From IMG/VR virus record IMGVR_UViG_3300030687_000017: 64,000 nt of DNA; one strand, 5' to 3'. The notes under the pieces were generated by a model that was not told the origin of the DNA, ran no database searches, and saw nothing but the letters and a program-made list of their open reading frames with translations. Below, piece by piece: positions 2,616 to 54,172 of this stretch. How positions within the stretch are numbered: position 1 is the stretch's first letter; the number at the start of each line of letters is the position of its first letter. The DNA comes from a virus. The position numbers and the translations under genes are program-made.

Positions 2616-3887
2616 ATGCCCATGAAGAACGGAAGACGAGTGGGCGACGACATCGAGCCGGTCGGCGAGGCCGACCCCGAGCGCGCCCTTGCGTTGGCGA
2701 AGCATGAGGAGGGCCTGACGCAGTCGCAGGACCGGCACAGGGCGAAGGACGTCCTCCCCGTCCCCATCAAGACCTCCAGCCTGGTTCCGCTTCCCTCCGG
2801 AGAGCGCAACGAGGTCTCGTACGCGTCCGACCTGGCCGACCCCGACGACATGACGCTGCCCGAGCTCGAGAAGGAAATCAACTCGCTGCTGTCCAAGTAC
2901 AAGCGAACCAAGCTGGAAGAGGCTCGCTTGCGGTTCCTTACCGACGCCGAAATGGACAAGAAGCGCAAGGCCACCAAGACCACCGACGGGCGTTCGCGCG
3001 ACCGCGGCCGTTTCGTGAAGATGCGCGATTCGAAAGAAAAGACAAAGGCGACAGACATGCTACGAACCAACCTGAATGAGCAGCGCAGTGGCTCCGAACC
3101 GGCCGACCACCTCTTCCGCGCCGCACAGTACGAGATCGGCGGCGACCGCGCTCGCGCCCTAGACTCATACCGCGCCGCAGCCGGTGGCTACCGTCGCGCG
3201 GGCGATCAAGCTGGCGAGCAGAAGGCCAAGGATGGCATCATGTTTTGTCAGTCCGCGTTCGACACGCAGTACGACCACCCCGGCATCGGACGCGTCCGCG
3301 TGTGCGACTCGGTTGACATCGCGCTGCGTACTGCGCTGGAGCGCACCCGCGCCGGAGAGCAGGTTCACGTCGAAGGCAAGACGGTTCGTCCGGGGTTCGC
3401 GCGCGCCAAAGATGGTGCACTACACGCCTACGTGCCCGACAAAGATGACCGATGCGCAATTTGTGGCCGTCCTGCTAATGACAGTTCTACGCACAAAGAC
3501 GCCGCACAATATGACGCGCATGGTCGTGATGCTGCCGGAGCTTGTGAAAACTGCGGTGCCAAAACTTCGGGAGACAATTTCCTGTGTGGAAAATGCCGTG
3601 CTAAGGCAAAGGACGACACCGGCGGACCTCCTCCTGTGGACAATCCAGCCACTCCCGCCGTGCCGGATCCGGTGCCGACGGGGGATGCCATCACACCCGA
3701 GGAGAAGAAAGAACTTGCCGAGTTGAAGTCGTATCGCGGTCCAAACGGCAAATACTCGCTGACGAAAGAACAACGAGCCCGTGAAGTCGAGCTGTTGAAG
3801 AGAGCAAGGCAACCGTTCAAAGACTCAGACTTGAAGGCCTCAGACAAAGCCAAGGCCAGCGACAAGAGGGAGGTTCAACCCGTATGA
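2616..3887 (+). CDS. hypothetical virion-module protein (charged, with Cys-rich zinc-ribbon segment)
   Basis: ATG at 2616 after AAGGAGG, start MPMKNGRR. The longer ORF 2343.. would overlap the tRNA. Internal CAICG...CENCG...CGKC cluster; K/E/D-rich termini. Confidence 0.55.
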   Translation: MPMKNGRRVGDDIEPVGEADPERALALAKHEEGLTQSQDRHRAKDVLPVPIKTSSLVPLPSGERNEVSYASDLADPDDMTLPELEKEINSLLSKYKRTKLEEARLRFLTDAEMDKKRKATKTTDGRSRDRGRFVKMRDSKEKTKATDMLRTNLNEQRSGSEPADHLFRAAQYEIGGDRARALDSYRAAAGGYRRAGDQAGEQKAKDGIMFCQSAFDTQYDHPGIGRVRVCDSVDIALRTALERTRAGEQVHVEGKTVRPGFARAKDGALHAYVPDKDDRCAICGRPANDSSTHKDAAQYDAHGRDAAGACENCGAKTSGDNFLCGKCRAKAKDDTGGPPPVDNPATPAVPDPVPTGDAITPEEKKELAELKSYRGPNGKYSLTKEQRAREVELLKRARQPFKDSDLKASDKAKASDKREVQPV

Positions 3888-5617
3888 CCGAGACAGAGGA
3901 AGAACTCTCCGTCCTCTCCGCGACCAAATCGCCACACGGCTACCTGACCAGCCCGCTCACCGACAACATCCACATGACGGACGAGGGCTACCTCGTGGTC
4001 GTCGGGTGCCCCATCGCGCGCACCGGTTGGCAGAAGTACGCCATCAAGGACCTACCGCAAGAGCGCGCGGCCGACCTCGGCGTGGACATGAGCAACCCGC
4101 ACGCCACCATCGAGCTCTACCGCTCGGAGAAGGAGGTCTTCCATCCGGAGTTCCTCGCGTCGCTGAACGGCAAACCAATCACCAATGGCCATCCTCCCAA
4201 CGGCGAGTTCGTCGATCCGAAGAACTTCAAGAAGCTAACCTGCGGGCATATACAGAACGTGCGCAAGGGTGCGGAGCCGCTGGAGGACGGGGAGTGGCCG
4301 ATCATCGCCGACCTCATCATCAGCGACCACGAATTGATTGAGAAGGTCAAGAACAAGACGGCGCGGGAGATAAGTCTCGGCTACGACTTCTCGATTGACC
4401 GCATGGGCGACAAGATCGTGCAGTGCGGAATGATGGGAAACCACAACGCCGTGGTTCCCAACGGCCGAGCCGGTGACTTCGTATCCATCGTCGACGCCGC
4501 GCCGGAAGACATCAAGACCACTGCCCCACTCGCTGAAGTCAAAGAGCTGAGCGTGGAGACCGCAGTGCTAACAAGTTTACCCTTAGAACCTACTGCGTCG
4601 GTGGAAGTCATCGAAACCACGTACAAACCAATAGTACTTCCACCAATCCCCAAGAAGGAGAAGCAAAACGTGGCCGAGACAAAGCCGAAGAAAGACTGGC
4701 TTCGCATCTTCAAAGGAAAGCATCTCATTGAGATGGCGCGAGCCACCGATGCTGACCCCGAGGAGGTTCTTGATGCTGCCGCAGCGTTGAACGACGACGC
4801 CGAGGAGCCCAAGGACACCGAGAAGAACGAATTCAAGTCTGAAGACAAGAAGGGCGCTAAGGACGGAGAATTGCCCGAGGCGCTAAAGGAAAACGAAATC
4901 AAACCAAAAGCGGAGGACGCTAAAGTGGCAGATGCACGGAAGAAGATGCATGACGCCCTCGACCGTGCACTCGACGCCAAGGCAACCGATGCGAAGGCTT
5001 CGGACTCCAAGGCGAAGGACGCCGACATTGAAGAGCTCAAGGAGTTGCTTGACGAGTTCCTAGACGAGGAAGAGAAGGAGCCCGAGCACGTTGACGATGT
5101 AGCTGATTCGTCCGAGCTCGAAGATGCGCTCAAGGGTGGCAAGGACGCTGAGAAGTGCGAGGAATGCGGCGAGGCGCACGACTCCGAGGAGTGCCCCGGC
5201 GAGGAGATGGACGAGAGCGGCGAGGAAGACATCGACGACGAGGAAGGTGAAAGTCCCGACCCCGACTCCGACGATGACCAAGAGGACGTCGAGGACAAGA
5301 AGGGCAAGGACGCCCGCGCCAACGACCGCGCCCGCGCGGCCGACAGCGTGAACGCCGTTCTCCGCATGCTGCGTCCGGGCGTCGCCCGTTCCAACGACAA
5401 GGCGCTGAAGGCCTCCTTCAACCGCGCGCTTGATGCGGTTAAGAAGTCCAGCCGTGCATCCAGTGGTAGCTACGGTGCGTTTGCCGGCTCGGCGCGCGCC
5501 CGTGACAAGGCTCCGCGCAACCCCAACCCCGATCGTGCCCGCGCCGCTGACGGTAAGGCTGATCCCATGACTAAGATGCAGGAGTTCTACAACTCCGCGC
5601 ACAAGGGAGGTAAGTAA
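3884..5617 (+). CDS. putative prohead protease / scaffolding protein (DUF2213-like N-domain plus acidic low-complexity C-terminus)
   Basis: Position upstream of the capsid gene; C-terminal ~300 aa extremely D/E/K-rich, typical of scaffolds; N-domain resembles phage prohead protease-like families (from memory, not searched). Confidence 0.5.
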   Translation: MTETEEELSVLSATKSPHGYLTSPLTDNIHMTDEGYLVVVGCPIARTGWQKYAIKDLPQERAADLGVDMSNPHATIELYRSEKEVFHPEFLASLNGKPITNGHPPNGEFVDPKNFKKLTCGHIQNVRKGAEPLEDGEWPIIADLIISDHELIEKVKNKTAREISLGYDFSIDRMGDKIVQCGMMGNHNAVVPNGRAGDFVSIVDAAPEDIKTTAPLAEVKELSVETAVLTSLPLEPTASVEVIETTYKPIVLPPIPKKEKQNVAETKPKKDWLRIFKGKHLIEMARATDADPEEVLDAAAALNDDAEEPKDTEKNEFKSEDKKGAKDGELPEALKENEIKPKAEDAKVADARKKMHDALDRALDAKATDAKASDSKAKDADIEELKELLDEFLDEEEKEPEHVDDVADSSELEDALKGGKDAEKCEECGEAHDSEECPGEEMDESGEEDIDDEEGESPDPDSDDDQEDVEDKKGKDARANDRARAADSVNAVLRMLRPGVARSNDKALKASFNRALDAVKKSSRASSGSYGAFAGSARARDKAPRNPNPDRARAADGKADPMTKMQEFYNSAHKGGK

Positions 5618-6414
5618 TGCCACAGTACAGCTTTGGCCAAGTTATCGGTGTAACAGGACCGAATAACGGCTTCCAGGGTACGGTCAGCCGGTTCGGCGAT
5701 CGCGTCATTACGGCGCGTGAATTCGTTCCCTACACGACCACCAACAACCTCAACTTCGGCGACCCTGCGGTCATCATTCCGAACAACCTCGGTGGTTACT
5801 TCGACTCCGTCGCCGACTTCGTAGCCCATTCGGCCGCGAACATCGGCCTCGTTGCCGCGTACTTCGCCGGTATGGCCGTCCGCGAGGTCAAGACGCAGCT
5901 CACCTACCCCGCCGGTCAGGCTCCTGGCATCCAGCAGGTCGGCTACTACGCCAACCTGCAGATGGCTGAGGTTCTGGAGCGCGGCAGCGGCACCATCGCG
6001 CTGGCCGTCGGCGCACCCAACTCACAGGCGCAGGTTTACACCCGCGTGGTTCTGAACGGTGCCGTAACCGCTGGCACAGTCGGCGATTGGGAGACCAACC
6101 CCGCTGCTACTGACCTGTTCAGCACGACCGGTACTGCTGCTGTCAACGCCACGGCGCTCACCATTGCGTCGGCGACCAACACGCAGAACGGTCAGGTCGT
6201 TTCCGGCGCTGGCATCCAAGCTGGCACCTATGTCGTGTCGGGCGGCGGTACGGTGAATATCGTACTCAGCCTTCCCACCACGCAGGCGGTCGCGGCTGGC
6301 ACGCCCGTAACGTTCAGCAACTTGGTTGCGTTGACCGACGTGGTCGCGCGTACCGGCAACCTGGACGTCAACAACATCCTGGAAATCACACTCAAGGGAC
6401 GCCACGCGGCGTAA
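5617..6414 (+). CDS. hypothetical head protein (possible decoration/cement protein)
   Basis: RBS GGGAGG; sits between scaffold and major capsid gene; Gly/Thr/Ala-rich. Confidence 0.45.
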   Translation: MPQYSFGQVIGVTGPNNGFQGTVSRFGDRVITAREFVPYTTTNNLNFGDPAVIIPNNLGGYFDSVADFVAHSAANIGLVAAYFAGMAVREVKTQLTYPAGQAPGIQQVGYYANLQMAEVLERGSGTIALAVGAPNSQAQVYTRVVLNGAVTAGTVGDWETNPAATDLFSTTGTAAVNATALTIASATNTQNGQVVSGAGIQAGTYVVSGGGTVNIVLSLPTTQAVAAGTPVTFSNLVALTDVVARTGNLDVNNILEITLKGRHAA

Positions 6415-6423
6415 GGAGAACCA

Positions 6424-7470
6424 ATGAAGCGTACTATCCCAAATCGCGTACGGGCATTCGATGCCTCTGGCGCGTCAGGTCTGGCGTTCCTTCAGAGCCA
6501 ACTGGAACTGATCGATACGGACCTCGTCCGTCCTTTGCAGGCTGTCACGCACAAGCGCGACATCGCTGTTGAAGTAGGTGGAGGCTTCCCGGAGTTCATC
6601 TCCGCGTTCAGCTCCAACTACGCCTCCACTGGTACCTCGTCCTACGGACTCCAGGGTACCAACAACACGGACATCCCCGAAGCACAGGCGGACATCCAGA
6701 AGGGCATCTGGCGCACGTACACATGGGCGATGGGCATGACCATCACCTGGATCGACCTGCGCCGTATGGAGACTTCCCTTCGCACCGGCCAGGCACCGCC
6801 GTTCAGCTTGCAAGAGCTGTACGAGGAGTCGGTCGAGACCACATGGGGCAAGGCTTTGGACTTCGTCACCTACGCTGGCTTCCTCGGAGACGCCGGGTTG
6901 ATCAACAACCCCAACATCTTCGAGTCGGTCGCTCCGGCTGGCGCTTCCACCTTCACCACGTGGGCCAAGAAGACTCCACAGGAGATTCTCGCGGACATCA
7001 ACTTCGCGCTGAATCAGACCGTGCAGAATTCTGGCTACTCGGCCGAGGAGGGCATGGCGGACCGCTTGCTGATCCCGTACACCCAGTTCGCCACGCTCAC
7101 GCAGCCGATCGCAATCGGCGGCGCGCCCGTGGCGATGAGCACCATCGAGTACGTCGAGAAGAACTGCGTCGCGGCGCACCACGGCATCGACTTCAAGATC
7201 AACTTCCTGCCCAACCCATGGATCAGCGGTACCGGCTCCGGCAACACCGCGGCTCCGGGATCGCCCACGGGCGGCAACGGGCTTGATCGCGGGTTCTTCT
7301 ACAAGAACTCGAAGAAGAGCGTGTACCTCAAGGTGCCGCAGCCGTTCATCCAGGCCATCACCGTCCCCACGACCCGCGCAGGCGGGGCGTACGAGACTAT
7401 GTTTGCCGGCTGTATCAGTCAGGTAATCTACAAACGGACCACGACTGCATACTATTTAGACGGTATCTAA
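6424..7470 (+). CDS. putative major capsid protein (DUF2184/encapsulin-like family)
   Basis: RBS AAGGAGAA; 348 aa; synteny protease/scaffold -> small protein -> capsid; recalled family resemblance only. Confidence 0.55.
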   Translation: MKRTIPNRVRAFDASGASGLAFLQSQLELIDTDLVRPLQAVTHKRDIAVEVGGGFPEFISAFSSNYASTGTSSYGLQGTNNTDIPEAQADIQKGIWRTYTWAMGMTITWIDLRRMETSLRTGQAPPFSLQELYEESVETTWGKALDFVTYAGFLGDAGLINNPNIFESVAPAGASTFTTWAKKTPQEILADINFALNQTVQNSGYSAEEGMADRLLIPYTQFATLTQPIAIGGAPVAMSTIEYVEKNCVAAHHGIDFKINFLPNPWISGTGSGNTAAPGSPTGGNGLDRGFFYKNSKKSVYLKVPQPFIQAITVPTTRAGGAYETMFAGCISQVIYKRTTTAYYLDGI

Positions 7471-7500
7471 AATGCCGGTGTCGTAGTCAAATTCGCTAAG

Positions 7501-7518
7501 ACGAGCTATAATTAATGC
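7501..7518 (+). promoter_or_regulatory. -10 element ACGAGCTATAAT immediately upstream of the HNH gene (leaderless-type arrangement)
   Basis: TATAAT at 7507-7512, ATG at 7519 only 6 nt downstream; the same GAGCTATAAT+N6+ATG geometry recurs at 9743-9761. Confidence 0.45.
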
Positions 7519-8046
7519 ATGGCTAAACCTAAGCATTCTATAGCTCGTCTACGCGAAGTTCTTGACTATAAACCACGTAAAGGCATCTTTGTATGGAAAA
7601 TTCATACAAAGTGTCAAGGTAGATTTATAAACCCTGGTGATCGGGCAGGCAGCACTCCAACTGGTAGATCTGATGACAGAATAGGCATAGGATTTGAGGG
7701 TAGGCAGTATCGCGCTCACATCTTAGCTTACGCTTTTATGAAAGGTCGTTGGCCGCCTAAAGGAAAGCTCGTTGACCATCACGATGGCAACGGCGCTAAC
7801 AATAAGCGGACAAATTTGCGCGAAGCAACGCGCACACAGAATCGCTGGAACACACGTCGACTTCGTAAGAGTAATAGTAGCGGTAAGGCCGGTGTTTCGT
7901 GGAATTCACACAACCAGAAGTGGCTGTCGCAAATTGTCGTTCATGGTAAATGCCATGAGAACAAGCTGTTCATAGATAAAGACAAAGCGATTGCGCATCG
8001 TCTAATGCTGGAGAAGAAGTACTTCGGCGAATACGCACCACAGTAA
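7519..8046 (+). CDS. HNH homing endonuclease with AP2 DNA-binding domain
   Basis: HNH motif VDHHDGNGANNKRTNLREAT..QN; AP2-like GKAGVSWNSHNQKWLSQIVVHGK; gene lies in a visibly AT-richer island between structural genes. Confidence 0.8.
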   Translation: MAKPKHSIARLREVLDYKPRKGIFVWKIHTKCQGRFINPGDRAGSTPTGRSDDRIGIGFEGRQYRAHILAYAFMKGRWPPKGKLVDHHDGNGANNKRTNLREATRTQNRWNTRRLRKSNSSGKAGVSWNSHNQKWLSQIVVHGKCHENKLFIDKDKAIAHRLMLEKKYFGEYAPQ

Positions 8047-8059
8047 ATTAACCGCCGTA

Positions 8060-8094
8060 CAAATGCCCAACGACATAAACGCGTTGGGCATTTG
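8060..8094 (+). terminator. stem-loop (13-bp perfect stem) downstream of the HNH gene
   Basis: CAAATGCCCAACG ... CGTTGGGCATTTG inverted repeat; no clear T-tract follows, so the terminator role is uncertain. Confidence 0.35.
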
Positions 8095-8228
8095 TACGTT
8101 CGGACTCGATTTTCAACACAAGGTTGCGTAGGCAGCGTGGCGCTGAGTAAGGTGCCTCCTTGCCGCCAGGCTCTTCTGCCCCTGTCTACGCAGCACTACA
8201 ACCCAAGCAGCAAGGAGAATACAACGTT

Positions 8229-8666
8229 ATGCCAATGCAGCTAGTATTCAAGCGTTCGAAGAGCTTCGTCCACGAGGACGAGGGCACCAAGAGCTTTCTC
8301 GCGCAAGCCAATCCGTCGCAGTCCATAGCCGTTCCCTTTTGGGTTGCTCTCACGCCAACGTTCAAGTATGGCATCAAGGACGGCAGCATCATCAACCTCA
8401 CGCCTGCTGATCAAATGCCGGGCTACAAGGCCGCGCTGCCAGCGCCCGTAATCGTGGAGAAGCCGACGGAGCCTGAAGCGGAAGTAGAGCTGTCCGAGGA
8501 AGATAAGCTCAAGGCCGAGATCGCCGCGAAGGACGATGCAGAGGGCGCGGAGCAGGGTCCGGATGATAAGCCGAAGGCACCGTTCGGCGGGCAGCCCATG
8601 ACTCCCGTGCAGCCCGCGCCGAAAGTCGGTGGCATCACTGCCAGCGTCGGTCGCACCAAGAAGTAA
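8229..8666 (+). CDS. hypothetical protein (145 aa, acidic/Pro-rich C-terminus)
   Basis: ATG at 8229 after AGGAGAA; the longer ORF from 8160 lacks an RBS. Confidence 0.5.
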   Translation: MPMQLVFKRSKSFVHEDEGTKSFLAQANPSQSIAVPFWVALTPTFKYGIKDGSIINLTPADQMPGYKAALPAPVIVEKPTEPEAEVELSEEDKLKAEIAAKDDAEGAEQGPDDKPKAPFGGQPMTPVQPAPKVGGITASVGRTKK

Positions 8667-8724
8667 GCCACAGGGCGTTCGTTGAATCTGCGCGGACGCC
8701 CGACATATTCAGAGAGGATTCCCC

Positions 8725-9726
8725 ATGGGCGGTTACACAAGCGGTCTGACGTTGAACACGCCGAATTTCAATGCGTGGCTTGGCACGGCATGGGGAGCGG
8801 GTCACTCGTATGAAGTTGCTTGCGCCGAATTCTACGGTGCAAGCAACTTCGTATTCGGCCAGAATCCGCCATACTACATGGATCAGTTCAAGGCGATCCA
8901 TCCAAAGTTCTTTGGCACGCCCACCGCATTGAGCGGCTGCAGCACGGAGATCGGACAGCCGACTGTCACCGTACCGTCAACGAACGGTTTGGACTACGGG
9001 CAGTTTCTGCAGGCGTGGGGAGTGTTCCCTCAGGGTACGTTCATCATCGGCATATCGGGCAACGTGATAACGCTGAATAACTCGGCCATCGTCACCAACG
9101 TCAACGCCACGTTGAACGTGTACGCGTCTACGCCGATTCCCACCGGAGTAATCCAGATGTACTTGAATCTGGCTGTGGCTTCGCTGGTGCAGGCTCGCTG
9201 GTGCGAGATGTGGTGCGTGGCGATTGAGTTGTACATAGCGCACTTCTGCACGCTGTACGCTCGCTCCGACTCTAGCGAGGTGTTCGAGTCGCTGCAGACC
9301 ATCGTGCACGGCGAGACGCCAGCCGGTATAGTGCCTGGCACCGTCTACACGCTTAGCGCAGCGCCTCCAGGCGGAACTTTGCAGTCGTTGAACATCAACG
9401 GCGTGTTCAAGATACCGGGGGTAGACTACACGCTCAGTGGAAACACCGTTACTTTGACGACGACCACCGTAATTGGTGACGATCTGTACGCTACATGGCT
9501 AACGCAGGAGTTGGTGTTGCAGGCTGCTCCGCTCAACGGCGCGCAGATCGCGTCGCAGGGATTAGCGTTCGGACTGCAAACGTCCAAGAGTGTTGGTGAC
9601 GTCAGCGTTGGCTACACCACACTGGAAGCTTTAGCCGACTGGGGGTCGTGGAACTTGACAATATACGGCCAGCAGTTGATCACGTTCGCAAGGGTCGTCG
9701 GCATGGGGCCAGGATTATTTTGGTAG
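8725..9726 (+). CDS. hypothetical structural protein (333 aa), possible head-tail/neck component
   Basis: Position between capsid genes and the HK97 gp10-like gene; no recognisable motif. Confidence 0.45.
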   Translation: MGGYTSGLTLNTPNFNAWLGTAWGAGHSYEVACAEFYGASNFVFGQNPPYYMDQFKAIHPKFFGTPTALSGCSTEIGQPTVTVPSTNGLDYGQFLQAWGVFPQGTFIIGISGNVITLNNSAIVTNVNATLNVYASTPIPTGVIQMYLNLAVASLVQARWCEMWCVAIELYIAHFCTLYARSDSSEVFESLQTIVHGETPAGIVPGTVYTLSAAPPGGTLQSLNINGVFKIPGVDYTLSGNTVTLTTTTVIGDDLYATWLTQELVLQAAPLNGAQIASQGLAFGLQTSKSVGDVSVGYTTLEALADWGSWNLTIYGQQLITFARVVGMGPGLFW

Positions 9727-9760
9727 GTCCTACGGGCATTTAGTGAGCTATAATAGCTGC

Positions 9761-10624
9761 ATGCCTGGTTTAGTGTATTTACTGGTTCACAGACCTACTC
9801 GTAGACCATATGTTGGTGCTACTGAGTCCACCTTAAAGAAGCGCCTTTTAAATCACATAAGAGAAGCTAAACGCGCGTTCAGAAAAATAGACGAAATGCA
9901 TTTACTGATGTCTGATGCTCTTTCTGATTGGGACTATGCCGTCCTAGAAACGGTTACCGATGGAGATAAACAGTATTTATGGAGTCGTGAGTCATTCTGG
10001 ATAGAACGACTCGGTAGTCTCGTACCACTAGGCTTTAACATCGCACAACGTGGTAACGTAGCTACTGGACGGCGTAATCCGTTCTTTGGCAAACATCATA
10101 AATCTACTTCGATTGAGTTAATAAGAACAGCCCGTATTGGCAGTAAACTAAGCGACGAGACGCGCAGAAGAATAAGTAAAAAAGGTCTTGGTAGAAAGCT
10201 TACGCCAGAACATTCTATTAATATTGGCAATGGTAGGCGCGGTAAGACCACCAAAGCACTAGGAGTACCAAAGGCATCTGAACACGCCAGAAAAATAGCT
10301 CTGGCAAGGATAGGCAGTAAACTTGTAGACGGTAAATTTGTAGAAGACAACGGAACTTACTTAGTAAGCAAGTCAACCTGTGTAGAGTGCAATAAAGTAA
10401 TAGTATTTGGTAAAAAGTGGCTACATTTAAACCCCAGCGATGGACACACAGCACGCCCCACAACGGTGAGTACTGTAAACTGGCGTAAACTGCGTGCTTC
10501 AGCGTTGGTAGAATGCAAGAATGTACTACGCTTTGAAAAAGCGCCATGGGTAAAAGTTTGCAGAAGCTTTAATACACCAAATAGAACCACTTGTTCAGAG
10601 TGTAAAGCCCGACTACGCGACTAA
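9761..10624 (+). CDS. GIY-YIG homing endonuclease with NUMOD3 DNA-binding repeats
   Basis: N-terminal GLVYLLVHRPTRRPYVG...KKRLLNH (GIY-YIG). Repeated basic motifs ARIGSKLSDETRRRISKKGLGRK and ALARIGSKL (NUMOD3-like). AT-rich island. ATG 9761 preferred over GTG 9743 because GAGCTATAAT (9746-9754) is then a -10 element. Confidence 0.8.
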   Translation: MPGLVYLLVHRPTRRPYVGATESTLKKRLLNHIREAKRAFRKIDEMHLLMSDALSDWDYAVLETVTDGDKQYLWSRESFWIERLGSLVPLGFNIAQRGNVATGRRNPFFGKHHKSTSIELIRTARIGSKLSDETRRRISKKGLGRKLTPEHSINIGNGRRGKTTKALGVPKASEHARKIALARIGSKLVDGKFVEDNGTYLVSKSTCVECNKVIVFGKKWLHLNPSDGHTARPTTVSTVNWRKLRASALVECKNVLRFEKAPWVKVCRSFNTPNRTTCSECKARLRD

Positions 10625-10645
10625 ACCTAAGTTCGAAAGGAACTT

Positions 10646-10670
10646 GCCTCAGCCTCGACATGGCTGAGGC
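10646..10670 (+). terminator. hairpin (9-bp stem GCCTCAGCC/GGCTGAGGC) followed by ATTCTT
   Basis: Directly after the GIY-YIG stop; the stem also contains the GAGG used as RBS by the next gene. Confidence 0.45.
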
Positions 10671-10676
10671 ATTCTT

Positions 10677-11231
10677 ATGCCTAAGACAGGACCCACCATC
10701 ACCGTAGCGCGTAAGTCTGGTGCCACCGCGTTGGCGAAGCGCATGGCTGGCCTTACGAAGCTGGCCGCTTATGTAGGGGTTCCAGCAGCTGGTAAAGACG
10801 CTCGTAAGCAGCAGTTGCTTGAGATGGCCGGCAAGACCGCCTCCAAAAAGAAGAAAGCCAAGCTTGCAAAAGCGGCGAAGGAAGACATCAACAACGCCGA
10901 GCTACTTTTTATCTTCGAGAAGGGCTCGCCCATCAATAAGCAGCCAGCGCGCCCGGTGTTGAAGCCGGCAATTGAGAACAACAAGGACTCCATCAATCGC
11001 GAGCTCAACGCCTCCATCAAAGCAAGCCTGGATGGAGACAAGGAGAAGGCCGCGAAGTTCATGCTGCGCGCCGCGCTCGCTGGTCAGAACGCCGCGCGTC
11101 GCATCTTCACCGAAGCGAATGGTTGGGAACCGAACGCCAAGTCGACGATAGCGCGCAAGGGCAGCGACGTGCCTGGCATCGACACCGGGGCGATGAGGGC
11201 GGCGATCGTAGGGGTCGTGAGAGAGGAATAG
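10677..11231 (+). CDS. HK97 gp10-family head-tail joining / tail completion protein
   Basis: Segments ARPVLKPAIENN and PGIDTGAMRAAI resemble the HK97 gp10-family signatures (RP(F/V)L(K/R)PA.. and ..DTG.(L/M)R). Confidence 0.5.
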   Translation: MPKTGPTITVARKSGATALAKRMAGLTKLAAYVGVPAAGKDARKQQLLEMAGKTASKKKKAKLAKAAKEDINNAELLFIFEKGSPINKQPARPVLKPAIENNKDSINRELNASIKASLDGDKEKAAKFMLRAALAGQNAARRIFTEANGWEPNAKSTIARKGSDVPGIDTGAMRAAIVGVVREE

Positions 11232-44506: not shown

Positions 44507-45538
44507 TTAGCTTAGATTTCCAGCAGTCTTACCAGACTTCAGCTGGTCGTCAAGGCCGATTTTCTCCGCCGTTGCCGACCCGGCCCGATACGCTCCGTGG
44601 TCACGTCGCGAAGCTTCACGATACGCCTTGCGATCCTGAGCCTCCCAATACCGTTCGCTGTACTTAGCGCGCCGTTCCGCTTCACGCGCTTCCGCTTTCA
44701 GACGCTTGGCTTTCTGCGCAGGCGTTTCCAGTGCCAATTTCGCTTCCAGTTCCGCGAGCTCCTTGGCTTCGCGTTCAGCGTTCAACTTGTCCTGCGCGGC
44801 CCAACGCTCTTCGTTCGCCTTCATACGTGCGGCGCGCGCCGCCCACGCACCCGCGCCGTTCTGGAAGTCGTAGTTCCCGATCTCCTCAGCGGTAGCGACG
44901 TTCCGTAACGCGATGGCCGTGGTGTAAGCAGCTTCTCCCTGAGTGGCGTAATCCGCTTTCTTCATGGCTTCGGCCTTCGCCTGGATGCGCTGAATCAGAC
45001 GATCAGAGCAGCCCTCGCGCCAGCTGCTAGCCGACCGGCTGAGTCGCTCTTTCTGTTCGTACGGTAGTAGACGTTCAATCGTGTCCATCAAGTAGTCCAC
45101 CATCATCAAGACCGACATCGTGTTGGCGGTGCGTCCAAGCACCTTATGACGCTTCACCCAACGCTTCTGCATGGCCTCGTCATCATCGTACTTCCGTTTG
45201 CTCTTCGGAATGTAGAGCTCTTCCTGTACCTCGGCCGTCCAGTAGATGCAGTAGTTCGCCTCGGCCAAAGCGCGCACAAGATTCCGCTGCCACTGGTACA
45301 TGGCTGAACGCTTCGTTACGGCGTAATCACGCTTCGCCATGGCGTCGTCCGGCGTGTTCGTACCGCCCTTGACGACTTTGTCTTGTACGGTGGCGAGGTC
45401 CAGGTTGTACTGTGCTAGAAGCTCTTGAGCCTTCGCCATGGCGGCGGCGGCTTCCACTTCGTTACCAGCGGCGCGCTCTGCGAGTTGGAGGAGGAGTTGA
45501 ATCTTGCGGACGATGTTTTCTGAGATCACTTCAGGCAT
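44507..45538 (-). CDS. hypothetical protein (DUF2786-like N-terminus; coiled-coil K/E/A/R-rich C-terminus)
   Basis: IVRKIQLLLQLAERAAGNEVEAAAAMAKAQELL resembles the DUF2786 start; RBS AAGGAGCG. Confidence 0.45.
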   Translation of the reverse strand: MPEVISENIVRKIQLLLQLAERAAGNEVEAAAAMAKAQELLAQYNLDLATVQDKVVKGGTNTPDDAMAKRDYAVTKRSAMYQWQRNLVRALAEANYCIYWTAEVQEELYIPKSKRKYDDDEAMQKRWVKRHKVLGRTANTMSVLMMVDYLMDTIERLLPYEQKERLSRSASSWREGCSDRLIQRIQAKAEAMKKADYATQGEAAYTTAIALRNVATAEEIGNYDFQNGAGAWAARAARMKANEERWAAQDKLNAEREAKELAELEAKLALETPAQKAKRLKAEAREAERRAKYSERYWEAQDRKAYREASRRDHGAYRAGSATAEKIGLDDQLKSGKTAGNLS

Positions 45539-45567
45539 TGGGTAGCGCTCCTTGTGCGCTGATTAGG

Positions 45568-45608
45568 ATTATAGCTCGTTTTCTGGAACTACGACTTTCT
45601 CCAGAAAA
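45568..45608 (-). promoter_or_regulatory. promoter (-10 CGAGCTATAAT at 45578..45568) with adjacent operator TTTTCTGGA-N12-TCCAGAAAA
   Basis: Inverted repeat 45579-45587 / 45600-45608 directly upstream of the -10, over the -35 region; 29 nt from the -10 to ATG 45538. Confidence 0.5.
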
Positions 45609-45757
45609 TCTGGATTCGCGAACACCAACCGGCCATCCGCTTTGTGCCGAATCGCCAAAAGCCCGTCATCCTCCAGACGACCATTCACTACGACCGCCTG
45701 GAACGACGTTCCATTGGGCGCTGTATACACGACCTCAGTCCCACGATCCGGTGTCAT
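45569..45757 (-). CDS. hypothetical small protein (62 aa)
   Basis: ORF ending inside the operator region; weak. Confidence 0.3.
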   Translation of the reverse strand: MTPDRGTEVVYTAPNGTSFQAVVVNGRLEDDGLLAIRHKADGRLVFANPDFLEKVVVPENEL

Positions 45758-47936: not shown

Positions 47937-48219
47937 TGGAGACCTCCCGCAGGAACTTCTCAACGTCCTTGTTCAACTTGCTGTCAACGCGAAGCTGGGC
48001 TTGCGCACGTTTCAGTAGCGCAATAGCGCACGGTAGACAGCTAAACTTCTTTACGCGCTCCTTCTGCGCGGCATCCCACTTGGCGCTTCGCTCTTCAGCT
48101 TTCCTAGCCACATTTTCTGGATTGTGCTGCGTACAGTAACCGCCCACGCATGCGGCGCGTAAGCACGAGCGCATACTAACGCTGCGCCCACCCATGGGAA
48201 CTCTCGCGATGCAGTTCAT
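47929..48219 (-). CDS. Cys-rich hypothetical protein (96 aa)
   Basis: RBS AGGAGG 10 nt upstream; preceded by -10 GCGCTATAAT. Confidence 0.4.
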   Translation of the reverse strand: MNCIARVPMGGRSVSMRSCLRAACVGGYCTQHNPENVARKAEERSAKWDAAQKERVKKFSCLPCAIALLKRAQAQLRVDSKLNKDVEKFLREVSNG

Positions 48220-48250
48220 TTTCAGAGCGCCTCCTTCTGACGCTCTTTGA

Positions 48251-48258
48251 ATTATAGC
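48251..48258 (-). promoter_or_regulatory. -10 element GCGCTATAAT
   Basis: Reverse complement of attatagc; 31 nt upstream of ATG 48219 with AGGAGG RBS between. Confidence 0.4.
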
Positions 48259-48707
48259 GCCTTCGCTCTTGCTGCTTTATTTATCGCTCTGGTGATGTGG
48301 CCAAGCTTCACAGCGGCAGACTTCGCTGCGAGCTCTTCTTTAGTCCACACTTTCTTCGCGTAAGCATCCTTTATACGCTTCTTCTGTGCTTTGTGAAACT
48401 TCGGATCGGCCCACATACTTCTAGATGATTCAGCTTTCTTAGCACGCATTTCAGACGTCCACTCTACCTGTCGTTTTCTACCCTTGCGAATCATGTCACG
48501 AACATTGTCAAGCTGCGTACCAAGAAAATGATGCGTATCCACGATACATTGCGGTTGATCACATTTATGGCAAACGTATATGTGACTGGGTACGTAGCCA
48601 TGACGTAGAATGTAAACGCGTCTGGCTACATTTCGCGAAGGATGAAGACGACACTTGCCTACTTTCGTAGCTTCGCGTAAGTATTGTGCTTCAGTTTTAC
48701 TGCTCAC
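48252..48707 (-). CDS. HNH homing endonuclease (HNH_3-type)
   Basis: HIYVCHKCDQPQCIVDTHHFLGTQLDNVRD (CHxCDNPxC...HL..GT..DN pattern); locally lower GC. Confidence 0.7.
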   Translation of the reverse strand: MSSKTEAQYLREATKVGKCRLHPSRNVARRVYILRHGYVPSHIYVCHKCDQPQCIVDTHHFLGTQLDNVRDMIRKGRKRQVEWTSEMRAKKAESSRSMWADPKFHKAQKKRIKDAYAKKVWTKEELAAKSAAVKLGHITRAINKAARAKAL

Positions 48708-51252: not shown

Positions 51253-52044
51253 CTAGGACTTCTGCTCCGCCTCGCAAGGCCCACCGTTAGAAGCCCTAAA
51301 CCTGCACCACCGACAATGGTAACCCGGCTTCGGCTCGTACTTTGTATCGGCCATCATTTGCTTGGTACGCGTCAACCACTCACTCTTCAGCGGCTTCAGA
51401 TCCTTGAGTGAATACTCCTCCGTCGCCGACTGGGTGGTGTCGGTGTATAGATGCTCGGCTACTACCTTGGTATCCTTGTTTCCACCGGCTAGTAAGCCGA
51501 GCTCGACTAGCTGCAGTCCTCCCAGCGCGTACAGGCTACGCTGTTGCTTATGCTCCTCATACACCTTACCGCTCTTCCAATCCGTTATATGTACCAGCGG
51601 TGGCGCCTTCTTGGTGGCTTCCGTAACCGCGCAGACGTCAACCTTGATACGCAACCAGCAATGAGTCCAATCATTCCACTTGGTGGGAACCCATTCTTTC
51701 GTGAACGCCCAGTCTTGCTCCACCATGGCTTTGACCTTGCGATACGTAGTCACACGATCTTGCACTTGCTTTAAGCCTGGATGGATTGGCTCCTTGGCCG
51801 GAAGTCTTCCGGCGATGTAATCCTCGGCAAATTTGTGGACAGCGTTGCCCTTGACGAATGCTGGGTTCTCCGGCTCGAATATCTTTATACGTTTAATCTT
51901 GTCGTAGCACACCGCTGCTGGGCAGCGCAGCCACGAAGTGTACACCGAATATGACCACGAGGAAAGGGTCGCTAACTTCTGCGGCACTGTGAATGTAGTT
52001 GTTGTCTTCTTGACCTCGGGTGCGGGTACTTTCTTAGGTGCCAT
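51253..52044 (-). CDS. PD-(D/E)xK Cas4/RecB-like exonuclease with C-terminal Cys cluster
   Basis: ATG 52044 after AAGAAAGG; SWSYSVYTSWLRCPAAVCY, ITDWKSGK (D-x-K), C-terminal YHCRWCRF...GGPC (4 Cys). Confidence 0.55.
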   Translation of the reverse strand: MAPKKVPAPEVKKTTTTFTVPQKLATLSSWSYSVYTSWLRCPAAVCYDKIKRIKIFEPENPAFVKGNAVHKFAEDYIAGRLPAKEPIHPGLKQVQDRVTTYRKVKAMVEQDWAFTKEWVPTKWNDWTHCWLRIKVDVCAVTEATKKAPPLVHITDWKSGKVYEEHKQQRSLYALGGLQLVELGLLAGGNKDTKVVAEHLYTDTTQSATEEYSLKDLKPLKSEWLTRTKQMMADTKYEPKPGYHCRWCRFRASNGGPCEAEQKS

Positions 52045-52192
52045 TGTGCCTTTCTTACTCAGTGGTTGGTTCGCCGTCGTCTTGCGTACTTGGCAAGTGA
52101 TAGACATGCTCAGGATCAAGCAGTGAATCTACTTCATGCAGTAACCCGGTCAGCACAGTGGTCCAGGCTGCCTCTTTACTACTGCTAATGTT

Positions 52193-54172
52193 TTAATCCT
52201 GCCATTTTGTCAAAGTCCCCCAATTAACACCAGATTCGCCTTCCGACAACATGGGAACGTCGGTGGCGATACTACGCATACAATCTTGCATTATTTTCTG
52301 TTCTTCTTTCATTGCTTTAGCAGGTGCACTGAAATTAACTTCGTCATACACAGTGACGACGAATCTGCTATTCTTCTTGGCTTCGTTATAACGTATCAAT
52401 GTTTCTTTCGTTACATCAGCTCCGCTACCTTGCATGAGGTAGTTGAGAAGTTTATATGAAAATGTCATGTCTCTGCCATACAGAGGACTGTACTTCGGCT
52501 CTTCACAATAGTACAGACGTGACCCAAACGTGCGAATCGGCAAGCCTTCATCCGAGAGCGCCTTCAAACGATTGTCCAGTTCCTTGATCGATGGCACAGC
52601 CGCGTTGATAGAAGCCTGGATGATCTGCGCAATAGGCTTCTCTTCATCTAGTAGCTGTAGAAGCTGCATCAGGCCGGTTATACCCTGGCCATACAGACGA
52701 CCGAACACGCAACTCTTGGCAGTGTCACGGTCGAATCCTTCGCGTAAACACGCTTCAATCAAACGCCGTTCTACTTCTGCACGCACCAGTTCATGGATGT
52801 CGTATTTGCGTTCTGCGTGAAATTTGCCACCAACGCATTGTTTACCTACAGGTGCGCCGCACTTAGAGCATGGCAAATCTATTTGGGCAGATAAGAAACC
52901 TGCCATAACGGGTCCTTCTTCAAAGTGGCCGAACAATCTCAATTCTTGTTGATCGAAATCCCTTTTGCCCCACCGCTGACCCTTATCCGGTAAGCAGTAA
53001 CTACGTACGTACGGCAATTCTGGAACCTTCAAGAATGCTGGATGGACGTAACCGGCAGAAGCTGCGCGCTTCCATTTCTTCGGAATATTTAAGAAGTTAG
53101 GCTTTGAGCAAATGATGCGACCGCTGCGCGCTCCTCCTGTATCGTTGTTACCCTTCGGACTGCGCACCTGCGACCAGTTAGGGTGAATGGTACCCTTGCC
53201 GGCTGTACCAAGTTCCAACCAAGGCTTGATAAACATCGAGATGGACGTACTCATCTGACCGCGATACTGCAGGGCTTGATACACCTTCGGGTCTTTGAAC
53301 TTATTCAACGTAAGTGTCTTCTTACTCACCGACAGATGGCCCTTGGCTGTCTTCTTAAAGTCGCTTACGATTCCTTTATTGTAAAGCGCCTCGCCAAGCT
53401 GCCGATCACTGTCGATGTTCTCAATACCCAGCTTCTTGCGCAGCCAGACATCGGTCTTCTCTACGCCAGCTATCATCGCCGGCAAGTCACGCTCTAGGCC
53501 ATTCATGTCCACGCGCATCCCCACCCGCTCGTTCTCCAGCAGTATTGGCATGAGCTTCAATTCACGTTGATACGCTTCCAGCATTCCGGACTCGACGATA
53601 TACGGGTAGATCTTATTGAACAACCGACCCATGCGCGTGAGATCGCCTTTGTGGTAGGGCTTGACAATTCGATAAGGCGCTTCGCAGATATACGCACCCC
53701 ATGTGCTGGGCTTCTTACGCGCCGCCTCGATGTTGGCTAGGATCCACTCCTTCAGCTTGTCCTGCTCCTCAGGCGCAATCCCTAGTATGCGCTGGGCCGA
53801 TTCCTTCAACGCTAGAGACGGAGCATGAGGGTTCTCGAGGAAGAGAAGATACATAGTATCGTGACGCTTCCGCCAATCCGGGATTGGTAGTTCCCAATGT
53901 ATTTCGGCGACGTCCAGATCGAATTTCTCGTTCTGCCAAAGCACTGGATACTTGCTTTCCTGTGCCTTCTTGAGCTCGCCGCGCGCTTCCTTCTCTGTGC
54001 AATTGTTGTCGAACGCACGCGTTCCATCCCCATGACCCCATGCCATGAGTTTGTAATCTGACTGATCGGGCCACTTAAGAGCGAGCGAACCCGGCTTCGG
54101 TGGGTACTTTGGCCGCGACTGAATACCCTTCGTTTCAAAATCTGCGAGAATCACCTGCGGCGCACGTGGCAT
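52193..54172 (-). CDS. family A DNA polymerase (3'-5' exonuclease plus polymerase domains)
   Basis: ExoI ILADFETKG; motif A DFDQQELRL; motif B RDTAKSCVFGRLYGQG; motif C VYDEVNF. Confidence 0.85.
   Translation of the reverse strand: MPRAPQVILADFETKGIQSRPKYPPKPGSLALKWPDQSDYKLMAWGHGDGTRAFDNNCTEKEARGELKKAQESKYPVLWQNEKFDLDVAEIHWELPIPDWRKRHDTMYLLFLENPHAPSLALKESAQRILGIAPEEQDKLKEWILANIEAARKKPSTWGAYICEAPYRIVKPYHKGDLTRMGRLFNKIYPYIVESGMLEAYQRELKLMPILLENERVGMRVDMNGLERDLPAMIAGVEKTDVWLRKKLGIENIDSDRQLGEALYNKGIVSDFKKTAKGHLSVSKKTLTLNKFKDPKVYQALQYRGQMSTSISMFIKPWLELGTAGKGTIHPNWSQVRSPKGNNDTGGARSGRIICSKPNFLNIPKKWKRAASAGYVHPAFLKVPELPYVRSYCLPDKGQRWGKRDFDQQELRLFGHFEEGPVMAGFLSAQIDLPCSKCGAPVGKQCVGGKFHAERKYDIHELVRAEVERRLIEACLREGFDRDTAKSCVFGRLYGQGITGLMQLLQLLDEEKPIAQIIQASINAAVPSIKELDNRLKALSDEGLPIRTFGSRLYYCEEPKYSPLYGRDMTFSYKLLNYLMQGSGADVTKETLIRYNEAKKNSRFVVTVYDEVNFSAPAKAMKEEQKIMQDCMRSIATDVPMLSEGESGVNWGTLTKWQD

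Follow-up and report, generated by a model that had tools for sequence, protein, structure and literature searches.

A 64,000-nucleotide stretch (the window) of the uncultured viral record IMGVR_UViG_3300030687_000017 in IMG/VR carries two endonuclease genes, one of the HNH and one of the GIY-YIG/NUMOD3 type, at junctions within its structural module. The source phage is found as ~100 kb contigs in many metagenome assemblies (JGI and ENA samples; peat and soil). No close DNA relatives were found among 50,697 cultured-phage records, and capsid relatives among cultured phages have protein identities of 35% or less. Because cultured phages offered no close relative, comparisons relied on IMG/VR and metagenome contigs. 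IMG/VR contains 36 loci with a capsid protein 74-93% identical to that of the window, and the related-locus set comprises 40 metagenomic phage loci. The two genes and the elements that accompany them all lie on the plus strand:

7492-7557, plus strand: 5′ hairpin around the HNH start codon and its -10 element; arms 7492-7496/7553-7557 and 7499-7510/7539-7550
7503-7512, plus strand: GAGCTATAAT, with the -10 hexamer TATAAT at 7507-7512, exactly 6 nt before the HNH ATG
7519-8046, plus strand: HNH_3 endonuclease gene, 175 amino acids (aa), identified by Pfam and PHROG
8052-8103, plus strand: hairpin 3′ of the HNH gene; core stem 8059-8072/8082-8095, tail GGCATTTGTACG; free energy (dG) -33 kcal/mol, z -7.4
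9745-9754, plus strand: GAGCTATAAT, with the -10 hexamer TATAAT at 9749-9754, exactly 6 nt before the GIY-YIG ATG
9761-10624, plus strand: GIY-YIG/NUMOD3 endonuclease gene, 287 aa, identified by Pfam and PHROG
10645-10671, plus strand: terminator-like hairpin 3′ of the GIY-YIG gene; 10-bp stem, dG -21 kcal/mol, z -5.3

An earlier sequence-only reading of this DNA had described two visibly low-GC genes, HNH-AP2 and GIY-YIG/NUMOD3, inside a head gene block. Each was said to follow an identical GAGCTATAAT-N6-ATG and to precede a strong hairpin, the second of which was said to hold the ribosome-binding site of the next gene. The upstream elements are present where it placed them, with an exact N6, and both hairpins are strong by free energy and z score. 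The 3′ arm of the second includes GAGG (10666-10669), the Shine-Dalgarno sequence of the downstream Neck1 homologue, 7 nt before its ATG at 10677. The low GC content is equally clear. The HNH gene has 46% GC and the GIY-YIG gene 43%, and the flanking genes have 57-60%. At third codon positions (GC3), the two genes have 43% and 34% against 72-80% in five neighbouring genes. The window has only four low-GC islands, and these genes account for two of them. The remaining terms fared less evenly. HNH is confirmed and AP2 is tentative, as set out below, and the block of plus-strand head genes also holds a neck gene, the Neck1 homologue 3′ of the GIY-YIG gene.

Open reading frame (ORF) 7519-8046 matches Pfam HNH_3 at 50.4 bits (cut-off 24.8; E 1.7e-13) and PHROG 99 'HNH endonuclease' (E 1e-47). 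Residues D86, H87, N99, and N108 are invariant among its homologues. Among solved structures, the homing enzyme I-HmuI (1u3e, E 2.6e-4) is its closest relative, and its best identity in a phage database is 39%. For AP2, the Pfam score is 13.5 bits, below the 33.3 cut-off. A medium-quality structure model has a C-terminal beta3-alpha unit with a predicted local distance difference test (pLDDT) score of 77-91. The best PDB fold matches of the model are AP2 domains (7et5: root-mean-square deviation 1.4 Å, 51 columns), yet all have E > 0.01. One homologue, P0005, has PF00847.

ORF 9761-10624 matches NUMOD3 at 22.0 bits (cut-off 20.4), with two NUMOD3 stretches at a relaxed threshold, and PHROG 314 'homing endonuclease' (E 7e-13). 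Its Pfam GIY-YIG score of 21.1 bits is slightly under the 22.6 cut-off. The catalytic residues Y6, Y17, G19, R28, H32, E77, and N93 are invariant across eight aligned homologues, and PF01541 is present in homologues P0007, P0009, and P0010. The best identity in the phage database is 31%. A word-indexed protein search matched only the protein itself, and an exhaustive HMMER search returned 2832 relatives, the closest 45-50% identical. ATG 9761 is favoured over the upstream GTG at 9743 because several homologues start a few residues before the GIY motif. Residues ~195-287 (10340-10621) form a Cys-rich C-terminal extension (CVEC ... CSEC) with no Pfam match. Among the aligned homologues, it aligns in part with the closest, P0007, alone. 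The extension may be a zinc-binding DNA-recognition module.

Empty and occupied junctions in related phages

Window proteins were mapped onto the related loci, and the junction sequences were then read. The genes that define the junctions are as follows:

3884-5617, plus strand: DUF2213 protease/scaffold gene, structural module
5617-6414, plus strand: 265-aa gene, structural module
6424-7470, plus strand: major capsid protein gene (Pfam PF09950, E 5e-34), left flank of the HNH cassette
8229-8666, plus strand: o145, a 145-aa structural-module gene between the two cassettes; syntenic in relatives, GC3 0.74, strong Shine-Dalgarno
8725-9726, plus strand: DUF4054/E217_gp27-like virion protein gene (PF13262, E 1.5e-14; PHROG 302), left flank of the GIY-YIG cassette
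10677-11231, plus strand: Neck1/tail-completion homologue (PHROG 222, E 4e-23), right flank of the GIY-YIG cassette; syntenic in relatives

The tail genes come after the Neck1 gene on the same strand. Among relatives whose capsid proteins are 75-93% identical, the capsid/o145 junction is empty, with a 63-206 bp spacer and no ORF, in L005-L011, L014, L015, L017, L019, L024-L028, L033-L034, and L039. It is occupied by an HNH homologue 44-48% identical to that of the window in L012, L013, L016, and L038, and by one 85% identical in L062. An unrelated GIY-YIG lineage occupies it in L018, L020, L021, L023, L029, and L036. In L032 (7023-7278), it holds a decayed GIY-YIG remnant that consists of the last codons (ALKKK*) and a terminator. 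At the DUF4054/Neck1 junction, the genes abut or overlap (TAATG, GTGA) in L013, L017, and L024-L028, and a 55 bp gap is found in L005-L009. Other relatives have different endonuclease genes or small extra genes there. All junctions from the capsid gene to g200 are hot spots in L001-L040, where several small extra genes and endonucleases of three or more lineages are found. The DUF4054/Neck1 site of L032 (8602-10116) has duplicated pieces from the N-terminus of Neck1 and the C-terminus of DUF4054.

Insertion boundaries are defined by a near-isogenic comparison. L038 is occupied, L039 and L014 are empty, and the difference is the HNH cassette. All parts of the cassette, namely the 5′ arm of the hairpin, the -10, the ORF, and the terminator, lie within the L038 insertion. 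Synonymous differences between L038 and L039/L014 are concentrated in the six final codons of the capsid gene and in ~50 nt right of the insert, and the sequences are identical farther right. These edge-clustered changes point to co-conversion or immunity and are suggestive for the window itself. There, the last 20 codons of the capsid gene have a GC3 of 0.50 against 0.8-1.0 in the codons upstream. The capsid C-terminal peptide is near-invariant in relatives, and GC3 in this part is lower in occupied than in empty alleles. Left of the HNH insertion, a native intergenic remnant (7480-7497, plus strand) contains GTCGTAGT and a -35-like TAGTCA (7484-7489). The empty sites of L005 and L014 have GGTCGTAGTT / TTCGTAGTTTCGC after the capsid stop.

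The sequence-only reading had taken both genes for self-contained mobile cassettes, had conjectured that these preserve expression of the flanking essential genes, and had suggested a search of related genomes for empty sites. In the comparison made here, both junctions are often empty, and the genes are not part of a conserved syntenic core. Their sporadic presence and the L038/L039 insert, which carries putative promoter, ORF, and terminator, agree with the cassette description. Since the genes are often absent from syntenic relatives, foreign in GC content, and site-specific, the comparison supports their assignment as free-standing homing endonuclease genes, and both gain and loss are visible. 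The conserved 3′ end of the capsid gene and the DUF4054-Neck1 joint are the likely cleavage target regions. Family membership and the edge-clustered substitutions together suggest homing.

Start-codon layout and hairpins

The window has three copies of TATAAT-N6-ATG where 0.08 would be expected, and none of 100 shuffles contains as many. The third copy (63251) was ruled out as a gene start, as the frame that it heads has just 14 codons and runs antisense to real genes. By anti-Shine-Dalgarno duplex energies, no Shine-Dalgarno lies upstream of either endonuclease ATG. The best duplexes are -2.2 and -2.7 kcal/mol for the two genes and about -6 to -11.6 for neighbouring structural genes. The canonical geometry of a sigma-70 start site is TATAAT, 6 nt, and then a purine, and a promoter scan at the HNH gene returned TAGTCA-17-TATAAT (10/12). 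Leaderless genes of bacteria have a TANNNT box ~12 bp upstream of the start codon (PMC3160421).

The phage has 13 TATAAT hexamers. Six of these lie 20-40 nt upstream of minus-strand genes with ordinary leaders, and host-type -10 promoters are therefore apparently used by the phage. GCTATAAT is common to three of the six other putative minus-strand promoters, so that the GAGC prefix of the cassettes is probably a local promoter flavour outside the conserved module. The putative promoter of gene 44507-45538 (45540-45610, minus strand; TATAAT 45573) has the 12-mer ACGAGCTATAAT and GTCGTAGT, as does the HNH promoter region 7480-7512. GGTCGTAGTTCAG is also found after the capsid stop in empty-site relatives (L005, ~6750-6765). 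The GTCGTAGT, ACGAGCTATAAT, and GGTCGTAGTTCAG elements may be a phage-specific regulatory motif; their spacing varies among copies, and no single model fits.

The layout without a Shine-Dalgarno is found in 5/6 HNH and 5/5 GIY-YIG homologues, window genes counted, down to 34-48% protein identity. The four closest GIY-YIG relatives were traced to their own contigs. Sequences before the start, and for HNH genes the folding of 76-81 nt around it in the leaderless members, are given here by lineage:

HNH, window: gagcTATAATtaatgcATG; 5′ hairpin dG -31.1 kcal/mol, z -6.0
HNH, L062 (85% aa identity): tagtTATAATtatgctATG; 5′ hairpin dG -37.9 kcal/mol, z -8.2
HNH, L012 (44-48% aa identity class): tcgaTATAATtgacgtATG; 5′ hairpin dG -32.5 kcal/mol, z -5.5
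HNH, L013 (44-48% aa identity class): tcgaTAAAATtaacgtATG; 5′ hairpin dG -24.9 kcal/mol, z -4.3
HNH, L038 (44-48% aa identity class): acgaTATAATtaatgtATG; 5′ hairpin dG -34.6 kcal/mol, z -6.2
GIY-YIG, L147 (45% identity, same junction): gtgTATAATtgagctATG
GIY-YIG, L148 (50% identity; different, oppositely oriented context; true start missed by the gene caller): gaTATAATtaaacgATG
GIY-YIG, L149 (37% identity, after a DUF4054 gene; TATACT): TATACTtattacATG
GIY-YIG, L150 (34% identity, after a DUF4054 gene; TATAAG-N7): TATAAGttgtcacATG

All five HNH genes listed have TATAAT or TAAAAT, N6, ATG, and no Shine-Dalgarno, though the bases around these elements differ. No Shine-Dalgarno precedes the GIY-YIG genes of L147, L148, L149, and L150. 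When up to one mismatch and a spacing of N5-7 are allowed, chance would place TATAAT at 0.5% of positions in the window and at 2% in 45%-GC random sequence. The 10-mer GAGCTATAAT was ruled out as the conserved unit, since homologues retain TATAAT-N6-ATG alone and the GAGC prefix is not kept. A scan of ORFs of at least 90 codons in the window and the 40 related loci returned four HNH genes and one spurious L010 frame, and no non-endonuclease gene in this set has the layout. The window GIY-YIG gene was excluded from the scan by an upstream-frame filter and was confirmed separately. Among more distant HNH-AP2 homologues, 0/31 have the layout, and most show an obvious Shine-Dalgarno. From the geometry we infer leaderless mRNAs, and its retention in diverged homologues of both genes lends this real comparative support. 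Public gene calls for some homologues begin at internal methionines: L063 4001-4309 and L064 866-1174 (102 aa, not 175) and L148 1953-2501 (182 aa, not ~209). These were presumably mis-started because the true starts have no Shine-Dalgarno.

A strong, covarying hairpin around the start codon was missed by the sequence-only reading; it is strong and conserved in the HNH lineage only. In the window, the 5′ arm terminates within the -10, the AUG forms base pairs in the hairpin interior, and the 3′ arm corresponds to codons 7-13. In an alignment of L012, L013, and L038, 95.8% of cells are paired, and 6/16 pairs have compensatory double changes; slid controls are 29-44% paired. Some compensatory changes follow amino-acid replacements in the 3′ arm. 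The covariation test covers this three-sequence sub-lineage, as indels shift the arms relative to the other HNH sub-lineage. Outer-stem changes in L062 lengthen the helix, and the L016 hairpin also buries a Shine-Dalgarno and a TTG start.

The downstream hairpins also behave as parts of the cassettes. The 8052-8103 hairpin is nearly invariant between the window and L062, while the ORF is just ~80% identical. The 10645-10671 hairpin is absent from empty-site relatives. The hairpin tail GGCWTTNNTAYG is found in the window at the two endonuclease hairpins only, and it is seen again in L016, L029, L036, and L147, downstream of endonuclease genes that differ in family and site. This recurrence suggests that the terminator travels with, or swaps among, cassettes. 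Exchange with backbone terminators is possible. An origin of 8052-8103 as the capsid gene's own terminator is unsupported: the closest empty sites have no hairpin, it lies inside the insertion in L038/L039, and the tail recurs elsewhere.

Proposed expression and alternative explanations

Homing endonuclease genes are common in phage structural operons. To our knowledge, T4 is almost the only case in which it is understood how the expression of free-standing copies is kept from poisoning the phage and from disturbing essential neighbours. We propose, with a probability of about 0.6, that the window carries two self-contained homing endonuclease cassettes at head-neck operon junctions, with their own leaderless expression, T4-like silencing, and homing. 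Each cassette would consist of a sigma-70-type -10 TATAAT placed 6 nt before the ATG, no Shine-Dalgarno, the ORF, and a GC-rich terminator-like hairpin. RNA polymerase from the weak, -10-only cassette promoter would begin at the A of the AUG and yield a leaderless mRNA translated at a low level. The abundant late read-through transcripts would be silent for the nuclease, as their internal AUG has no Shine-Dalgarno. At the HNH gene, the AUG and the -10 would in addition be buried in the -31 kcal/mol hairpin on read-through RNA. The 5′ arm of this hairpin lies upstream of the predicted start site, and cassette transcripts would be free of it because the promoter sits within the hairpin. The terminator-like hairpin after each ORF would end the cassette's own transcript. 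The GIY-YIG insertion would have broken the ancestral coupling of Neck1 to DUF4054, and its terminator hairpin would also give Neck1 a new Shine-Dalgarno and start context. In a mixed infection, relatives that have no cassette would be cleaved close to the junction by the nucleases, and recombinational repair would copy the cassette with its flanks.

Several points weigh against this proposal. Neither gene has a good -35 element: that of the HNH gene is TAGTCA, and no such element can be recognised for the GIY-YIG gene. Promoter strength is uncertain for this reason, and TATAAT could be conserved for a reason other than promoter function. An HNH homologue at the same site in L016/L066 has a TTG start and an AGGTG Shine-Dalgarno inside a hairpin. 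Of the GIY-YIG lineage, only L149 has a significant hairpin around the start (z -4.4); that of the window (9733-9767) has -14 kcal/mol and z ~-1.8. The homologue sets are small and phylogenetically related. Each contig examined with the same DUF4054 protein carries both endonuclease genes, so no presence/absence polymorphism was seen within the phage 'species'. A capsid-protein scan of 185,579 reference genomes, made with a view to the host, found no relative.

Three other explanations were weighed. The genes may be homing endonuclease genes whose TATAAT is no promoter and which are translated from the polycistronic late mRNA without a Shine-Dalgarno, either through an AU-rich standby or S1-dependent site or by re-initiation after the upstream stop. 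The A/T-rich hexamer would then just keep the start region favourable. The poor -35 elements fit this account, as do the upstream stops (the capsid stop is 48 nt before the HNH ATG and the DUF4054 stop 34 nt before the GIY-YIG ATG) and a third endonuclease gene of the window (48252-48707), which is clearly translationally coupled via a GTGA overlap. However, those stops are too distant for classical coupling, and the HNH AUG is paired in a -25 to -38 kcal/mol hairpin that would block internal initiation. The account also fits badly with the exact hexamer and 6-nt spacing in two unrelated enzyme families, and in the oppositely oriented context of L148. We regard it as unlikely, yet as the most serious of the three.

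Fixation is less probable still. The nucleases would be domesticated accessory proteins that are no longer mobile and serve in competitor exclusion or as an HK97-like HNH packaging partner. Both genes are located in the structural module, dozens of metagenome assemblies of the phage contain them intact and without sequence differences, and work on HK97 gp74 reportedly indicates that HNH proteins next to head or terminase genes can be packaging factors. But most close relatives keep the structural genes without these endonuclease genes, both genes are foreign in composition, and the same junctions house other endonuclease lineages and one decayed copy. The HNH_3 plus AP2-like architecture, with I-HmuI as nearest solved relative, is of the homing-enzyme type, and competitor exclusion is in any case a normal phenotype of an active homing endonuclease gene. 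That the genes are ancestral and the 'empty' sites of relatives are deletions seems highly improbable. Loss does occur, as the L032 site retains just the last codons and terminator of a GIY-YIG gene. Against a general history of deletion stand a GC3 ~35-45 points under that of surrounding genes, several unrelated lineages at one junction, and the edge-clustered synonymous changes in the near-isogenic pair. The overlap of the DUF4054 stop and the Neck1 start (TAATG, GTGA) in many relatives likewise represents a compact ancestral state.

The two-cassette proposal has a broader form, to which we give somewhat less than even odds. Two unrelated homing endonuclease families in soil and peat phages would have converged on, or exchanged, a portable leaderless module: a bare -10 abutting the ATG, often in a hairpin, with a shared terminator with the tail GGCWTTNNTAYG, such that nuclease is made only from the rare transcript of the cassette itself.

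Relation to known systems and other elements in the window

In T4 I-TevI/II/III and segB and in Aeh1 mobE, transcripts started upstream fold a translation-blocking hairpin, and the gene's own promoter lies inside the hairpin (Edgell, Gibb & Belfort 2010, PMC2988022). The cassettes are like these in that the endonuclease gene sits within a strongly transcribed unit of the host phage and is followed by a terminator. At the HNH gene, they are also alike in a predicted stable hairpin over the start that would form only on transcripts begun upstream, with the putative promoter within it. Two features differ. In T4, a consensus Shine-Dalgarno is hidden by the hairpin and the late transcript has a leader, whereas here there is no Shine-Dalgarno and the predicted start is at the A of the AUG. 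The promoter here is a host sigma-70-like TATAAT, whereas that of T4 is the late TATAAATA. The HNH module thus resembles the T4 logic and is, as read from its sequence, not a strict member of that class, which is defined by a Shine-Dalgarno first sequestered and then freed.

Free-standing phage HNH-AP2 and GIY-YIG enzymes (seg-like, NUMOD3; T4 seg/mob, T5-like, SPO1-like, I-HmuI; PMC10055350) share with the window genes their domain families, their intergenic positions beside essential genes, and a low GC content. They are likewise sporadic in distribution, with several lineages in competition for a single junction and with changes in the flanks that resemble co-conversion. 'HEG islands' (HEG, homing endonuclease gene) near essential phage genes are a familiar type of location (PMC10055350). 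The window genes differ from these enzymes in their distant sequences (best identities 39% for HNH and 31% for GIY-YIG), in the Cys-rich extension of the GIY-YIG protein, and in belonging to an uncultured phage group. As homing endonuclease genes, they are new members of known families and ordinary.

Leaderless genes elsewhere (lambda cI from PRM; Actinobacteria and Deinococcus-Thermus; PMC3160421, PMC12340547) similarly have TATAAT or TANNNT 6-7 nt before the start and no Shine-Dalgarno. Unlike those, the layout here is limited to two mobile-gene lineages; the other genes of the phage use strong Shine-Dalgarno sequences, and there is no genome-wide habit. A full-text search for literature joining 'leaderless' and 'homing endonuclease' found only a speculative remark on mycobacteriophage HNH genes (PMC11855218) and did not find this architecture. 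A conserved leaderless layout with the promoter in a hairpin thus appears to be undescribed. It would be a second solution beside that of T4, in which the promoter is fused to the start codon, only the leaderless transcript is translatable, and one site adds a covarying hairpin. If true, uncultured soil phages would come under the T4 paradigm, leaderless translation would serve as a throttle for a toxic selfish gene, and selfish genes would insulate themselves inside essential operons by a previously undescribed route. TATAAT-N6-ATG in a low-GC island would then be a motif for finding and annotating such cassettes and their true start codons.

One structured element between the cassettes is native and was left intact by the insertion:

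8121-8228, plus strand: structured element upstream of o145, outside the cassette; 12-bp closing stem 8123-8134/8183-8194

Empty-site relatives have this element as well, and in 15 sequences compensatory changes affect 9/12 of its stem pairs. It includes an invariant CTCCTTGC (8156-8163) whose exact reverse complement is the o145 Shine-Dalgarno GCAAGGAG (8210-8217), and it is a candidate for anti-Shine-Dalgarno control of translation of the gene that follows the capsid gene. Rfam gave no family match over 7300-10900, including 8121-8228, and one sub-threshold chance match.

The other two low-GC islands lie on the minus strand. The third endonuclease gene (48252-48707) encodes a 151-aa HNH protein (PHROG 1872/1492) in an island with a GC3 of 0.33-0.53. 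Its GTG start overlaps the helicase stop, and it is therefore translationally coupled and not leaderless. Its stop codon falls within GCGCTATAAT, and the hairpin AGAGCG...CGCTCT after it (48205-48262) contains the AGGAGG Shine-Dalgarno of the next gene. The fourth island, 52000-52700, has no separate ORF. It is the C-terminal third of the DNA polymerase gene (52193-54172), with a GC3 of 0.33-0.53 against 0.6-0.8 elsewhere in the gene, and may be a mosaic or co-converted stretch.

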